NCBI GenBank assembly: GCA_965199715.1
Contig: OZ241322.1
Span: 128,001-192,000 of the forward strand
Length of the DNA: 64,000 nucleotides
Direction: 5' to 3'
DNA from: Vicinamibacteria bacterium
GTDB lineage: Bacteria; Acidobacteriota; Vicinamibacteria; Marinacidobacterales; Marinacidobacteraceae
Shown here: positions 23,306 through 57,366 of the stretch, piece after piece
How the letters are laid out: every line of letters begins with the position of its first letter
How positions within the stretch are numbered: position 1 is the first letter of the stretch
Program-made: the position numbers and the translations under genes
The notes under the pieces: model-generated
Databases searched by the model: none
Seen by the model: only the letters and a program-made list of their open reading frames with translations
What the model was told of the DNA's origin: nothing

Positions 23306-23415
23306 GGGGAGTCGAGCTGAGAAACGTGAGCCTCACTCTGCTCTCGAATCAAGCTCCTCATTCGGCCGAGGCCGACGATGGGGAGTCGAGCTGAGAAACG
23401 TGAGCCTCACTCTGC
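23306..23415 (+). repeat. 36-bp perfect direct repeat flanking a 38-bp insert (CRISPR-unit geometry) over the cas3 start
   Basis: GGGGAGTCGAGCTGAGAAACGTGAGCCTCACTCTGC at 23306-23341 and 23380-23415. Confidence 0.9.
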
Positions 23416-26168
23416 CCTTCAGCGATGCGTTCGGAGCGCTGACCGGGTTCCCGCCCTTCCCGTGGCAGGAGCGCCTCTACGAGGAGTGCTTCCGTCGGGG
23501 GTCGCTGCCGTCCGCGGTGGACATTCCGACGGGCCTGGGCAAGACCGCGGTCATGGTGATCTGGATGCTCGCCCGCGCGGCCGGGGCGGATTTGCCGCGC
23601 CGGCTCGTGTACGTCGTGGATCGCCGCGCCGTCGTCGATCAGGCCACCGAGTTCGCTGAGCGGCTTCGAGCCGCGCTGCACGGGGAAGACCGGCTGAAGC
23701 CGGTCCGTCTGGGACTCGGTCTCGAGGACCGCAAGCTACCCATTTCAACCTTGCGCGGTCGCCACGTGGACAACCGGGAATGGATGGCCGACCCGACCTC
23801 CCCGGCGATCATCGTGGGGACCGTGGACATGGTGGGTTCCCGGTTGTTGTTCGAGGGATACGGACTCTCGCGCCGCATGAGGCCCTTTGCGGCTGGGCTG
23901 CTCGGCTGCGATTCGCTCGTGTTGTTGGACGAGGCTCATCTCGCCCGACCGTTCGGGCGCTTGCTTCGCGCCATCGAGATCGGGACGACTCCGCCCAGCT
24001 CGCCAGATTCCGACGGGCCGGCGGGGACGCTCGCCGGCTCGGCGAGCGCGACGGGCCTGCCGCCGCGCTTTCGCGTGCTGCCTCTCTCTGCGACATTGGA
24101 TCGGACTTCGACGACCGAGGCCTTCGGTCTGGACGAAACCGACGAAGGGAACCCGATCGTTCGCCAGCGACTGCATGCGCCCAAACGCATTGCGGTCGAA
24201 GCGCTCGAAGAGTTCCGGAAGCTCGACGAGCAACTCGCCGACCGGGCGTGGGCGCTTGCCGCCGATCACGAGAAAGGGACATTCAGCCGTGTCGCGATCT
24301 TCTGCAACTTCAGGAAGGACGCAGAGAAGGTCGCCGACGCTCTAGAGAAGAGATCGCGCAAGGAGAATTCGGACGCCTACGTCATTCGGTTCGTCGGAGG
24401 CCGGAGGGTCCATGAACGGCAGCAAGCCGCGGACGAGCTGGTGAAACACGGGTTCATTGGCGACTCCGTGACGGCGGCGGAGCGGCCGACGTTCCTCGTC
24501 GCCACGTCGGCGGGAGAGGTCGGAGTCGATCTCGACGCGGAGCACATGGTGTGCGACCTCGTGGCGTGGGAGCGGATGGTGCAGCGCTTGGGTCGCGTGA
24601 ATCGGCGGGGCAGCGGCGCGGCGCGGGTGGTCGTCATCGATCAGGGCCCGCCAGCGAAGCCGGCTCCCGGTCCGCACGTCGTGGCGCGCCACCTCGCGGT
24701 GGCCGCCCTTCTCGATGAGCTGCCACGGGACGACGCAGGCGAGAAGCAGGCGGGCCCGGCGGCGCTCGCGGGTTTCGCTTCGCACAACGGCCGAAGCGAA
24801 AGAACCTCGGAGGCCACGACCCCGATGCCTCTCTATCCGGCCCTTACTCGCCCGCTCGTCGACGCGTGGGCGATGACGTCGATTGAGGAGAATGCCGGGC
24901 GGCCTGCGATTGCGCCCTGGTTGCGCGGGTGGGTGGAAGACGACCGCCCGCAGACCGCCGTCTTATGGCGCCGCTTCCTGCCCATTTGCAGCCGAGTCGG
25001 TTCCGACGAGCCGGCCGCTGTCCGGAAGTCGGACGCCCGCGAGTTTTTCGCCGCGGCGGCGCCTCAAGCGGCGGAACTGTTGGAGACGGAGTCCGCCCGC
25101 GTCGTTGACTGGCTCCGTAAGCGTGGCAGCGCAGTTCGGAAGAAGTTGGTCGGCGCGAAGGACGAGAAGGGCGGAGAGCCTGGTTCGGTAGGCCTGAGCG
25201 TGCGTTGCCCCGTGGTCGTTGTACTGGATCGGGCCAACGGCTTTGTGCGCACCATGTCCCTCGACGAGATTGAGGAATCCACGAGCGACAAGCGGCGCCG
25301 GGATCGACTGGCGGAGGAGTTCGCAGCAAGGCGGGTCGTCGTGGACGTTCGCATCGGCGGCCTGACGGACGGCCTTCTCGATGAAGCAGCCTCCGATCCC
25401 CCGACCACGATCGAGGACAACTGGGTGGAGGCCGGCGGTGATTCAGCCGGCGGGGCGTGGACGCTGCGGGTCGATCGGTGCGAACAGCGGGACGGGGTGG
25501 TTGACGGGTGGTTCGTCGTGTCTTCCATTCCGCTCGTCGAATCGGAGGAGGGCGAGCCGCGGGCGTGGTTGGTCGTGCGGAAGCGGCGCACCGCGGGTGA
25601 GAGTGAGCACGCGAGGTCCGTCGCCGGAAAGCTCCAACGGCTCGAAGACCACCATGACTGGACCGGAGAGGAGGCCGCCCGCATCGCAGCGAGGCTGGGC
25701 CTTGCTCCCGACGAATCGGCGATGCTGGTCGCCGCAGCCCGATTCCACGACCACGGCAAGGCGGCGGCCCGCTGGCAGCGGGCGTTCGACGCGCCGCGCG
25801 AGGGCGGTCCCTTCGCCAAAACGAAGAGAGGACCCAACCAGCATCTGCTGAACGGGTTCCGGCATGAACTCAAGTCGGCCTTCGATGCGGAGCGGATGGG
25901 ATTGGATGGCGTCGAGCGAGGCAGCGCGTACTTCGATCTGGCTCTGCACCTGATCGCCGCGCATCACGGCAACGCCCGTCCCGGCATCAAGGTCGGCGGC
26001 TACGACGATCTTCCTCCGAGCGCCGCCGAGGCGGCGGCGCTGGCGATCGGAATTCGGTTCGCGCGCCAGCAGCGCCAATGGGGGCCGTGGGGCCTCGCCT
26101 GGTGGGAAGCGTTGCTCCGCTCCGCGGATCAGGCGGCTTCGCGGAAGCTGGATGAGGAGGGGTCCTGA
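23400..26168 (+). CDS. cas3: Type I-G (I-U) Cas3 helicase with C-terminal HD nuclease
   Basis: PFPWQ, PTGLGKT, DEAH, QRLGRVNR, C-terminal HDHGK/RHE/AHHG; likely GTG start at 23400. Confidence 0.95.
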   Translation: MSLTLPFSDAFGALTGFPPFPWQERLYEECFRRGSLPSAVDIPTGLGKTAVMVIWMLARAAGADLPRRLVYVVDRRAVVDQATEFAERLRAALHGEDRLKPVRLGLGLEDRKLPISTLRGRHVDNREWMADPTSPAIIVGTVDMVGSRLLFEGYGLSRRMRPFAAGLLGCDSLVLLDEAHLARPFGRLLRAIEIGTTPPSSPDSDGPAGTLAGSASATGLPPRFRVLPLSATLDRTSTTEAFGLDETDEGNPIVRQRLHAPKRIAVEALEEFRKLDEQLADRAWALAADHEKGTFSRVAIFCNFRKDAEKVADALEKRSRKENSDAYVIRFVGGRRVHERQQAADELVKHGFIGDSVTAAERPTFLVATSAGEVGVDLDAEHMVCDLVAWERMVQRLGRVNRRGSGAARVVVIDQGPPAKPAPGPHVVARHLAVAALLDELPRDDAGEKQAGPAALAGFASHNGRSERTSEATTPMPLYPALTRPLVDAWAMTSIEENAGRPAIAPWLRGWVEDDRPQTAVLWRRFLPICSRVGSDEPAAVRKSDAREFFAAAAPQAAELLETESARVVDWLRKRGSAVRKKLVGAKDEKGGEPGSVGLSVRCPVVVVLDRANGFVRTMSLDEIEESTSDKRRRDRLAEEFAARRVVVDVRIGGLTDGLLDEAASDPPTTIEDNWVEAGGDSAGGAWTLRVDRCEQRDGVVDGWFVVSSIPLVESEEGEPRAWLVVRKRRTAGESEHARSVAGKLQRLEDHHDWTGEEAARIAARLGLAPDESAMLVAAARFHDHGKAAARWQRAFDAPREGGPFAKTKRGPNQHLLNGFRHELKSAFDAERMGLDGVERGSAYFDLALHLIAAHHGNARPGIKVGGYDDLPPSAAEAAALAIGIRFARQQRQWGPWGLAWWEALLRSADQAASRKLDEEGS

Positions 26169-27049
26169 TGGCCGAGGCGCAGATTCCAGTCGATCTCAAG
26201 AATCCCGGCCAAGTGTTCGCGTGCCTGGGGTTGGTGGAAGCCGCGGACGTGTTGCTCGGCGACGCTCGGGGCGCATTCGACTGGACGGATCCGGGCGATG
26301 TTCAGTTCCGGATCGCGGCGAGCGGCGATGAGTGTCCGCTTGAGCGCGTCCTTCGCTTTCTCGATGAGGCCAAGGTCGTGTCCGTCGCTCCTAAGGGATC
26401 CACGCTCAGCACCGAGAAGTGGAAGGTCCGGACGGAGACGTCCGGCTCAAGTGCGTTCCCATTTCCGGATGCGGGCAAGCCGGACGTCCTTCCGGCGCGG
26501 CTGACCGATGGCTCCGGCAACGTCATCGTGGTGGATCACTGGGGCGACCAGACGAGGGCGCGACGCGATCGGGTGAAGTTCTGGGCCGGCGCCGGCGGGT
26601 ATCCCGGTGCGGCCCTGACGCGCGACGCGCTGGACCTGATTTGCGACCATGCTCTTGGCAACGCGGACGCGCCGTTCGATTTCGCAACGGAACAGAGCAG
26701 CAGCTTCCGATTCGACTGGCGGCGCGACTACATCCCCATCGACGCCGGGTTCTCGCCCAACAGGCACGGGAACGTAGTGATGCGTGGGTATCCGATCGTC
26801 GAGGTCCTCGCAGCGGTCGGATTGACGAATGCCCGGCCCTGGCGGCGCACGCGGTTGGATTACACGTACGGCGTCATCGGCTTGTCAGAAGCGCTGTACG
26901 ACCCCATTTTCCTGCGAGCGGCGCTCGGCACGGAGGTCGCTCCGACGGCCGGGATGCCGTTTCGCTTTTTTCGGATGCGGCTGGGCGAACCCGGTCAGGA
27001 AGGCCAAGCCCGCTGCATCCTCGACGTAATTGAGGAGACACCGTCATGA
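26168..27049 (+). CDS. cas8u2: Type I-G short large subunit Cas8u2 (GSU0052-like)
   Basis: [22 protein letters not shown]-terminus, FRFDWR, GFSPN; lies between cas3 and cas7. Confidence 0.75.
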
Positions 27050-57240: not shown

Positions 57241-57253
57241 ATCACTGCATCCG

Positions 57254-57366
57254 GGAAGTCCCGCCACGGCGCCGTGGGCGGCGGGGTCATTCAAGAGTCG
57301 TTCTCGCTTCACTCATGCCGGAAAGTCGGAAGTCCCGCCACGGCGCCGTGGGCGGCGGGGTCATTC
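57254..57366 (+). repeat. 39-bp perfect direct repeat flanking a 35-bp insert, overlapping the peptidase stop codon
   Basis: GGAAGTCCCGCCACGGCGCCGTGGGCGGCGGGGTCATTC at 57254-57292 and 57328-57366; contains the palindrome CACGGCGCCGTG. Confidence 0.9.

Follow-up and report, generated by a model that had tools for sequence, protein, structure and literature searches.

The window, that is, the whole stretch of 64,000 nucleotides analysed here, contains three short units, D7, D8 and D6, in each of which two copies of a local sequence enclose a unique insert; all three adjoin a type I-G cas operon and its 328-repeat CRISPR array. Most likely, they are fossil mis-insertions made by the bacterium's own spacer-integrating enzyme. 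Judged by their geometry, the units are probably products of Cas4/1-Cas2 that integrated off target and were inherited, with a concentration near the enzyme's own locus. What is shown directly is this geometry, the rarity of such units, the recovery of D7 and D8 in independent samples, the presence of one Cas1, and the empty state of a fourth unit in relatives; the agency of Cas4/1-Cas2 is inferred.

The cas operon is situated on the plus strand, downstream of a flanking core gene of the same strand, cobQ (cobyric acid synthase, 21710-23194; NCBIfam NF001989, 591 bits). It comprises cas3g (23400-26168; TIGR02621, 620 bits), cas8g2 (26168-27049; TIGR04106), cas7g/csb1 (27046-28074; TIGR02570), csb2 (28078-30246, 722 aa; TIGR02165), a cas4g/cas1g fusion (30349-32034; NF049935, 757 bits) and cas2 (32044-32337; TIGR01573). 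Alignments with Cas3 homologues begin at residue 3 of the protein started at GTG 23400, and those with csb2 homologues reach residues 716-721 of 722. For the fusion gene, position 1 of the profile falls at ~30376, and TTG 30349, GTG 30361 and ATG 30391 are candidate starts; the gene is full length, is the sole cas1 of the genome, and together with cas2 is predicted to encode an intact integrase. The leader (32338-32594, plus strand) carries the conserved I-G motif CTCGAA (32543-32548), which lies 52 nt ahead of the first repeat. The array that follows (32595-57240, plus strand; Rfam CRISPR-DR16) has repeats of 37 nt, 321 of the 328 being identical and the last one (57204-57240) degenerate. Beyond it, on the minus strand, lies a gene of the S9 prolyl-oligopeptidase family (57361-60939; Pfam PF00326, 177 bits, with PD40 repeats), taken as the longest open reading frame, its start not being fixed. 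The locus has four sizeable non-coding gaps; the three units fill three of them and the leader is the fourth.

We found exactly three lone direct-repeat pairs in the window, at the places stated beforehand, as the original prediction of three unrelated 36-, 38- and 39-bp duplications around unique inserts had it. All are given in plus-strand coordinates. In D7, copy 1 (23306-23341, 36 nt exact, or 39 nt with one mismatch if extended to 23344) and copy 2 (23380-23415, to 23418 in the longer form) flank an insert of 38 nt (23342-23379, 58% GC). In D8, copy 1 (30216-30253, 38 nt) and copy 2 (30293-30330, immediately upstream of cas4/1), which differ by one mismatch at position 5, flank an insert of 39 nt (30254-30292, 59% GC). 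In D6, copy 1 (57254-57292, 39 nt exact, 13 nt past the last degenerate repeat) and copy 2 (57328-57366) flank an insert of 35 nt (57293-57327, 51% GC). The three duplicated sequences are unrelated to each other, and every insert occurs only once in the genome. Thus, targets of 36, 38 and 39 nt stand beside a local repeat of 37 nt, and inserts of spacer length give periods of 74 (D7), 77 (D8) and 74 (D6). The predicted resemblance of these periods to that of the array was borne out: the 327 array intervals have periods of 75 (90 intervals), 74 (77), 76 (66), 73 (53), 77 (13), 78 (7) and 72 (7), with 299 of them between 73 and 77. Each window unit has just two copies and no leader motif upstream, so none is a bona fide CRISPR array, defined by at least three repeats and a leader motif.

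Every unit straddles a gene boundary, also as predicted, and at all three both flanking functions are kept. Copy 2 of D7 holds the original cas3 ribosome-binding region, a purine-rich stretch, together with the GTG start at 23400, copy 1 being a second copy of this start region; the duplicated GTG in copy 1 would open, judging from the sequence, a by-product upstream reading frame of 22 codons (23326-23394, plus strand), whose TGA stop lies 5 nt upstream of the cas3 GTG. Copy 1 of D8 includes the last ten codons of csb2 and its stop (30244-30246). Copy 2 of D6 includes the last codon and the stop (57361-57363, minus strand) of the peptidase gene with a G+C-rich hairpin behind, which is also present in copy 1; among the repeats of the window units a stable hairpin is seen in D6 only.

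A uniform scan of the entire 2.66-Mb genome for lone non-tandem pairs (spacing 31-300) confirmed that such units are rare. It returned 10 pairs, with spacings of 48, 72, 74, 74, 77, 84, 115, 156, 192 and 269; four of the 10 have periods of 72-77, and three of these four are situated within 34 kb. Chance cannot account for exact repeats of 36-39 nt.

The fourth of these units (contig C1:433060; copies of 33 nt with one mismatch, 33-36 nt; period 72) lies in frame within a gene of the Xan_ur_permease family, 280 kb from the locus. All eight permease orthologues compared are without 19-24 residues exactly at this place, and the segment of the congener G003 is exactly 72 nt shorter; the middle part of the unit is therefore new DNA between the copies of a target duplication. 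The expected single-copy state is thus present in relatives for the fourth unit. No empty allele was found for D7, D8 or D6, and the runs compared for D7 and D8 carry the filled form at full depth. The congeners have an effector module different from that of the source genome, so they offer no sites comparable with D7, D8 and D6. No lone unit of such geometry was present in the ~475 kb that surround the related cas4/1-cas2 loci in G001 and G003.

We examined the cas neighbourhoods of 84 other I-G loci (80 loci with 1.36 Mb in total, and four more) and saw nine lone pairs outside arrays, with spacings of 48, 67, 71, 71, 71, 73, 74, 113 and 155. Three of the nine match both in duplication length and in period: L119 in Fulvimonas soli (37 nt exact, period 73; own repeat 36 nt), L146 in a Vicinamibacterales MAG (35 nt exact or 41 nt with one mismatch, period 74; repeat 37 nt) and L069 in G246 (36 nt exact, period 71; repeat 37 nt). 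All three are within 10 kb upstream of cas4/1. Furthermore, on the strand of the repeat, the last base of all seven units of such geometry is C, as it is in the CRISPR repeat itself.

One could attribute the units to some other process of duplication with insertion, unrelated to the CRISPR integrase, in which case the likeness to the array period would be coincidental or would follow indirectly from the locus; template switching, filler-DNA repair at staggered breaks (possibly after self-inflicted Cas3 damage) and an unknown small element are examples. Other spacings do occur, both in this genome (48, 84, 115, 156, 192 and 269) and at the other I-G loci (48, 67, 113 and 155), and such a process would sit well with targets unlike repeat or leader and with inserts having no protospacer in the collections searched. 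Against it, four of the 10 genome pairs and five of the nine pairs from other loci fall into the 71-77 window out of the scanned range of 31-300. Simple tandem duplication cannot yield two copies around a unique middle part, and the DNA past copy 2 does not resemble the insert. The inserts have nothing in common beyond a 5-nt word, hence they are not copies of one element. To our knowledge, no repair or transposition process makes target duplications of 33-39 bp. Casposons and transposons also leave an insert flanked by a duplicated target; however, their target-site duplications are of 2-15 bp (~14-15 bp for casposase) and their inserts measure kilobases and have terminal repeats, unlike the 33-39-bp duplications and mutually unrelated 35-39-bp inserts seen here. 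All processes of this kind, taken jointly, we consider unlikely.

The off-target reading itself has to accommodate the searches for sequence similarity. Compared in register, the targets of seven units showed no likeness to their own CRISPR repeats (p 0.25-0.99; 0.64-0.99 for D7, D8 and D6), and matches of the Rfam CRISPR repeat family (CRISPR-DR) were confined to the array. The conserved leader motif, expected ~51 nt upstream, was absent in seven of seven units; in 57 of 70 I-G leaders, this motif sits 49-52 nt ahead of the first repeat. For the inserts, we found no protospacer or PAM in the collections searched: there was no match in the own genome or among the array spacers, none in ~150 other loci and no exact match in IMG/VR; an exact-match scan of JGI metagenome contigs with the D6 insert gave none, and the best hit of the D7 insert to GenBank phages had E = 2. 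Within the genome, outside themselves, the inserts have best matches of 14-15 nt (E 0.05-0.2) and match no promoter or gene even in part. The search for phage or plasmid matches and a shared PAM, suggested with the original prediction, thus gave no evidence of a foreign origin in the collections searched. The original prediction of off-target scars fits the geometry, the rarity, the single Cas1, the fourth unit and the recurrence at other loci; this support is circumstantial, and nothing was gained from protospacers, a PAM or empty alleles of the three window units.

The same searches bear on the other branch of the original prediction, in which the units function as mini-arrays: Cas proteins would process or bind their RNAs, and these RNAs would regulate the cas operon or a toxin. 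CreTA/CreR mini-arrays have degenerate CRISPR repeats and a spacer partly matching the target promoter. Two repeats with one spacer-sized insert in or beside a cas operon do resemble them: two of the units belong to the operon region, one preceding cas3 and the other cas4/1, positions similar to those in L069 and L146, and the 22-codon reading frame of D7 could affect translation of cas3. However, the duplicated sequences are not degenerate CRISPR repeats; they are made of functional gene ends, have neither repeat likeness nor leader motif, which argues against mini-arrays of the Cre type, and the inserts have no promoter match. The hairpin of D6 has no counterpart in the other repeats, and a unit of the same geometry lies far away, inside the permease gene. 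We regard a regulatory role of this kind as very improbable, and this branch is not supported.

D7 and D8 were also seen outside the source assembly. Both are identical, with no differing letters, in contigs from two further studies (Logan contigs of runs); these contigs break at the repeats because a k=31 graph must, and Logan unitigs of 98 and 104 nt run from copy 1 through the insert to copy 2 in D7 and D8, respectively. Depths of the insert unitigs were 155.5 and 172.7 in X3, with flanks at 136.8, 153 and 150, and 4 and 4 in X6, with flanks at 4.3, 3.3 and 2.7. Although the source is a two-contig assembly from a metagenome, and the comparison with other runs covered D7 and D8, an assembly or sequencing artefact is scarcely credible, as D7 and D8 recur letter for letter with inserts at flank depth and are not assembly artefacts.

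Returning to off-target integration, one unit would be the scar of one spacer-sized fragment integrated by the bacterium's own I-G Cas4/1-Cas2 into non-CRISPR DNA. The integrase would attack each strand at a point roughly one repeat length away from the attack on the other; repair of the gaps would then duplicate the 36-39 bp between the points of attack and leave the fragment between the copies, giving target copy, insert and target copy with a period as in the array. Most such events would presumably destroy a gene, and the survivors would be those that left both neighbouring functions intact: at the cas3 start, at the csb2 stop, at the peptidase stop with its hairpin, and as an in-frame 72-bp event in a tolerant permease linker. 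The inserts, accordingly to be seen as former prespacers if this scheme applies, carry in each of the three in-locus units the CTCG(A/C)N core of the leader motif, in leader orientation: CTCGAA at insert positions 2-7 in D7, CTCGCA at positions 26-31 in D8 (with its inverse CGCGAG at 6-11) and CTCGCT at positions 11-16 in D6. As a bolder and doubtful extension, prespacers with the leader motif may therefore license integration into a leaderless target. Duplication lengths of 33-39 rather than exactly 37 count against the off-target reading; on the other hand, an I-G Cas4/1-Cas2 studied in vitro made no more than 60-70% of its spacer-side integrations at the right position (PMC10504553), an accuracy in keeping with duplications of 36-39 and not of exactly 37.

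Of the four events, three are in non-coding gaps of the CRISPR-cas locus, which suggests that the enzyme prefers DNA close to its site of synthesis or recruitment. This clustering comes from one genome scanned in full; in the other genomes the scan covered the cas neighbourhood. We put forward more tentatively, as a possible but doubtful generalization, that I-G Cas4/1-Cas2 integrates off target in nature, mostly in cis, that it has reached each sizeable non-coding gap of its own locus besides the leader, and that scars of this kind, which unrelated I-G hosts (Fulvimonas soli, the Vicinamibacterales MAG and G246) bear as well, form a natural record of the birth of repeat pairs.

In E. coli type I-E, off-target integration is described as forming new repeats, ‘neo-CRISPR’ loci (Nivala, Shipman and Church, 2018). 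As far as that account goes, the products are alike: in a cell that has Cas1-Cas2, a chromosomal target as long as a repeat is present twice, away from the array, with a spacer-sized insert between the copies. The differences are that the E. coli events came from over-expression, whereas our units occur naturally and have become fixed in populations in the wild; that the subtype here is I-G with a Cas4/1 fusion; and that the targets here have no repeat or leader likeness, three of the four units sit within the locus that encodes the enzyme, and none has grown beyond two copies. Off-target sites reported for E. coli and Pyrococcus furiosus appear, in the accounts cited, to have features common to leader or repeat. 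With P. furiosus Cas1-Cas2, which in vitro integrates off target at sites with repeat-like sequence features (PMC6698737), the process proposed here would have in common that non-CRISPR DNA receives full-site integrations with a fixed stagger; repeat-like features, unlike in those sites as described, are not detectable in our targets.

Off-target spacer integration is known, in the literature cited here, mainly from over-expression in E. coli and from in vitro work, and a preprint speaks, in its available part, of only ‘circumstantial evidence’ for two other species. Here, a single wild genome has four fixed events, for one of which relatives preserve the empty state, and there are look-alikes in three other I-G hosts. 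As a rule for a census, we offer that the size of a lone copy-insert-copy unit should follow the local repeat length. If the off-target reading is true, mistakes of the integrase become heritable in nature; the units would show, from nature, how wide the stagger is (33-39 bp) and that the target needs no particular sequence, would suggest a strong preference of the enzyme for its own neighbourhood, and would be real examples of the first step toward new repeats and, eventually, new arrays.

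A search for direct repeats across the whole window returned, besides the CRISPR array, three lone pairs of copies. They lay exactly where the original prediction had placed three duplications with CRISPR-like periods, and every detail of that description proved correct. In the first unit, D7 (23306-23344 and 23380-23418), the copies agree exactly over 36 nt, followed by one mismatch and two further matches, with a period of 74 nt and an insert of 38 nt. The copies of D8 (30216-30253 and 30293-30330) are 38 nt long and differ at position 5 alone (period 77, insert 39 nt); those of D6 (57254-57292 and 57328-57366) are identical over 39 nt (period 74, insert 35 nt). 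The array (32595-57240) counts 328 copies of a 37-nt repeat, of which 321 are identical, and its 327 intervals measure 75 (90 intervals), 74 (77), 76 (66), 73 (53), 77 (13), 78 (7) and 72 (7) nt.

By NCBIfam profiles, the locus consists of cas3g (23400-26168), cas8g2 (26168-27049), cas7g (27046-28074), csb2 (28078-30246), a cas4g/cas1g fusion (start at about 30349/30391, end at 32034) and cas2 (32044-32337); cobQ lies upstream and an S9 peptidase gene, on the minus strand, beyond the array. The repeat end ATTGAAGC on the plus strand, together with the degenerate last repeat, places the leader at 32338-32594. Genes within the operon overlap or are separated by 3-9 nt, and the locus has four sizeable non-coding gaps: upstream of cas3, between csb2 and cas4/1, the leader and the trailer. 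Three of these gaps hold D7, D8 and D6; the remaining one, the leader, is where integration normally takes place.

Each duplication leaves both neighbours preserved, as had been claimed; this was seen in the sequence and, for D7 and D8, also in the ends of homologue alignments. Copy 2 of D7 retains the GTG start of cas3 (23400) and the stretch preceding it, with homologues starting at most 3 residues away; copy 1 of D8 retains the last ten csb2 codons and the stop, with homologues aligning to 1-6 residues from the end; copy 2 of D6 retains the last codon and stop of the peptidase gene and the hairpin behind it. Since cas3 needs copy 2 and what lies downstream, while csb2 needs copy 1 and what lies upstream, the ancestral state would have been one copy. 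A predicted 22-codon upstream ORF (23326-23394), with its stop 5 nt before the cas3 start, would be a by-product of D7; a scan around D7 found no promoter or terminator.

The genome has one Cas1. Its Csb2 is 722 aa long; the NCBIfam profile (492 positions) spans residues 5-489, and the C-terminal extension, some 230 aa, also occurs in homologues from another family of the same class (53-56% identity). Three congeners are without this effector module and have only cas4/1-cas2 in common. The locus has the look of a modular mosaic.

Could the units be artefacts of assembly? The region 22800-31000 is nearly complete in sequencing runs from three studies, labelled as sponge metagenome or as coded organisms. 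Contigs of two runs, X3 and X6, which belong to studies distinct from the probable source, were used for the check and cover D7 and D8; contigs of run X10 are small low-depth pieces outside the units, and X7 is an RNA library with contigs broken at repeats. Breaks in the X3 and X6 contigs fall exactly at the repeats because a 31-mer graph must break there. Unitigs 98 nt (23312-23409) and 104 nt (30224-30327) in length join copy 1, insert and copy 2 with zero differing letters. As an empty allele adds no new 31-mers, depth is the sole witness: insert unitigs had depths of 155.5 and 172.7 against 136.8, 153 and 150 for the flanks in X3, and of 4 and 4 against 4.3, 3.3 and 2.7 in X6. D7 and D8 are thus identical in contigs of two other studies, with insert depth equal to flank depth, which speaks against an artefact and says that their filled form is fixed or nearly so.

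The genome-wide scan proposed in the original prediction was made under uniform rules (26 or more matches in 28, a spacing between 31 and 300, a core with no more than two occurrences nearby, and a copy length below the spacing by 8 nt or more). In the whole genome (2.66 Mb, two contigs, 71.5% G+C) it gave ten lone pairs, with spacings of 48, 72, 74, 74, 77, 84, 115, 156, 192 and 269; four lie at 72-77, three of them being the units of the window, though a uniform-spacing null for such pairs would be an arbitrary choice. The fourth unit, the sole one of CRISPR geometry beyond the window in this genome, occupies positions 433060-433169 of contig C1 (copies of 33 nt with one mismatch, period 72, insert 39) and lies in frame in a gene of the Xan_ur_permease family, the protein reading ...EEALLVLGGEDEAS-SGPSRGTGIPTAG-LLVLGGEDKAS... 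All eight orthologues compared (three from congeners, five from the family) lack 19-24 residues at this exact place. Between conserved anchors there are 147 nt of DNA here and 75 nt in congener G003, a difference of exactly 72; for G001 and G002 the same interval measures 84 and 90 nt. A single copy is therefore ancestral at this site, and by these alignments the middle of the unit is new DNA and its flanks are a target duplication.

The empty alleles that had been suggested as a check were accordingly found for the fourth unit, but not for any of the three window units; for D7 and D8 the X3 and X6 contigs hold the filled form only. In G001 and G003 cas4/1-cas2 have 72-73% identity and the repeats are related, but the effector module is different, so a comparable site is absent there. 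The closest Csb2 homologues come from another family, where an extra gene precedes cas4/1; an alignment upstream of cas4/1 at four other type I-G loci (L146, L066, L069 and L105) yielded no clean empty site, and a Csb2 query of metagenome-contig and genome-contig collections found no relatives. In G001 and G003, the scan for lone pairs over ∼475 kb surrounding the related cas4/1-cas2 loci and their arrays, with 27 of 30 matches required, returned arrays and multi-copy tandem repeats and no lone units.

We scanned the neighbourhoods of further type I-G loci, four of the closest-Csb2 family and 80 found via Cas4/1 alignment (1.36 Mb); as only the cas neighbourhood of these hosts was covered, they are uninformative on clustering. 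Hits at or within arrays were excluded, namely two-repeat arrays at contig ends (L077, L103, L117, L131, L134) and duplicated repeat-spacer blocks (L104, L112, L115, L125, L148), leaving nine lone pairs. Periods of 71-74 occur in five of the nine, though spacings of 31-300 were scanned: L068 (copy 31-39 at 87% identity, period 71, ∼8 kb after csb2), L069 (36 exact, period 71, 270 nt before cas3), L072 (copy 53, period 71, ∼5 kb after the array), L119 (37 exact, period 73, 5.8 kb before cas4/1) and L146 (35 exact or 41 with one mismatch, period 74, between a PIN gene and cas4/1). The others are L114 (copy 35, period 48, within the leader), L098 (copy 28-51 in four overlapping rows, period 113, ∼4 kb after the array), L088 (copy 55, period 155, ∼7 kb after the array) and L127 (14174-14310, copy 31, period 67, just behind the array). 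In L127 a 31-nt sequence occurs twice directly after the last repeat, each time preceded by 36 nt, which resembles an appendix of two copies whose gaps have spacer size but whose ‘repeat’ is unrelated.

Copy length and period both match in L119, L146 and L069, and the positions of units at these loci resemble those of D7, at a start region, and of D8, immediately ahead of cas4/1. L119 belongs to Fulvimonas soli DSM 14263, whose own repeat is 36 nt, and L146 to a Vicinamibacterales MAG with a 37-nt repeat. The L119 unit covers the ribosome-binding site and ATG of an 1885-aa helicase/nuclease gene. This gene (4206-9863), between a cas3-like gene and cas4/1, has M48-like, DUF4011, AAA_11/AAA_12 helicase and REase_MTES_1575 domains.

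The targets of the seven units (D7, D8, D6, the fourth, L119, L146 and L069), scored against the own repeat in register, on both strands and with offsets up to 3, showed no likeness beyond that of random same-locus sites (p 0.25-0.99). Type I-G leaders have a strongly phased motif, CTCG(A/C)(A/G/T) (consensus GCAGCGCTCGCAAAC): of 70 leaders, 57 have its start 49-52 nt ahead of repeat 1 and 60 have it within -65 to -38; in the window it is at 32543-32548. Several I-G leaders have an inverse motif, TTGCGAGCGG, just before the repeat. The leader motif was upstream of none of the seven targets. On the repeat's strand all seven duplications end in C, as the repeat does, at a C frequency of ∼0.35; a shared terminal C is suggestive, although the boundaries are set by where matching stops. 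A strong hairpin was seen in the D6 target only, no stronger than in shuffled sequence (20 of 200 shuffles fold equally well), and the D7 and D8 targets gave no good fold.

The inserts have a G+C content of 58% (D7), 59% (D8) and 51% (D6) versus the genome's 71.5%; spacers have 65.8 ± 9.7% (319 spacers of 30-45 nt). The proposed check of insert origin found no foreign source or protospacer: the inserts had no match in the genome, in the array, in the loci retrieved for comparison or in IMG/VR, the D6 insert none in JGI metagenome contigs, and the D7 insert none in GenBank phages (E of 2 or more). The collection scans being for exact matches, this absence is weak negative evidence. The leader-motif core CTCG(A/C)(A/T) is on the plus strand of all three window inserts; among 314 spacers measuring 33-41 nt, 6.4% have it. 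With a position weight matrix from 57 leaders, the window's own excluded, the scores were modest: p against these spacers was 0.019 for D7, 0.073 for D8 and 0.10 for D6; for the four other units, where the motif is not shown, it was 0.28-0.97. Fisher combination gives ∼0.007 for the three inserts and ∼0.1 for all seven. One could speculate about a leader-like motif in the inserts, as a hint only and an unexplained one. The shared word TCTCG was rejected as a signal, a 5-mer being common to 8-14% of random triples.

The array has irregularities of its own. Its first eight intervals (32595-33285) are 94, 74, 71, 82, 75, 69, 96 and 92, and partial repeats lie inside two ‘spacers’ (32632-32688 and 33193-33247), which is unusual at the youngest array end. 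A mid-array patch (52113-52560) with broken or degenerate repeats and intervals of 107, 104, 136 and 58 may mark the place where two arrays once joined, or may result from internal deletions. A 25-nt tandem motif (GGTACCCCCAGCCACCCCGGGGCTA-like) recurs inside three distant spacers (40230-40276, 44342-44388, 46075-46125), and there are many similar repeat-spacer blocks (repeat families D3/D4); several acquisitions from a single source, or duplication of whole blocks, could account for them. The spacer at 42918-42956 matches the own chromosome (C1:1696904-1696936) at 31 of 33 positions, possibly as a self-target or an integrated element.

The original prediction offered two readings, off-target spacer integration and a regulatory mini-array. 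Off-target integration by the genome's own Cas4/1-Cas2 fits the geometry, the rarity and the single Cas1. Cas1-Cas2 would make two staggered transesterifications, and gap repair would then leave a unique spacer-sized middle between repeat-length copies of the target. According to PMC10504553, a related I-G enzyme in vitro directs only 60-70% of its spacer-side attacks to the correct position; such imprecision fits duplications of 33-39 rather than exactly 37. A regulatory mini-array of the Cre type is unlikely: the targets are unlike the repeat and have no leader motif upstream, the inserts match nothing in the genome or array, and one unit sits inside the permease gene. A transposon, or copies of one element, could also leave target duplications; however, the inserts are unrelated to one another, and we know of no transposon that duplicates 33-39 bp. 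Simple tandem duplication cannot be the source, as it yields no unique middle.

Off-target integration making new repeat pairs is described, in passages citing Nivala et al. (2018), for E. coli type I-E under over-expression; the process would be the same here, though natural and in type I-G. One of these passages speaks of natural evidence as circumstantial and from two species. A literature search, with most subscription journals outside its reach, found nothing on such scars in type I-G or on their clustering at cas loci. The new aspects are targets without likeness to the repeat and clustering at the enzyme's own locus. Three of the four events fell within ∼220 nt of the locus's ancestral non-coding DNA and none in the remaining intergenic DNA of the genome; in this one fully scanned genome, this concentration suggests that the enzyme acts in cis, or that altered cas expression was selected for.
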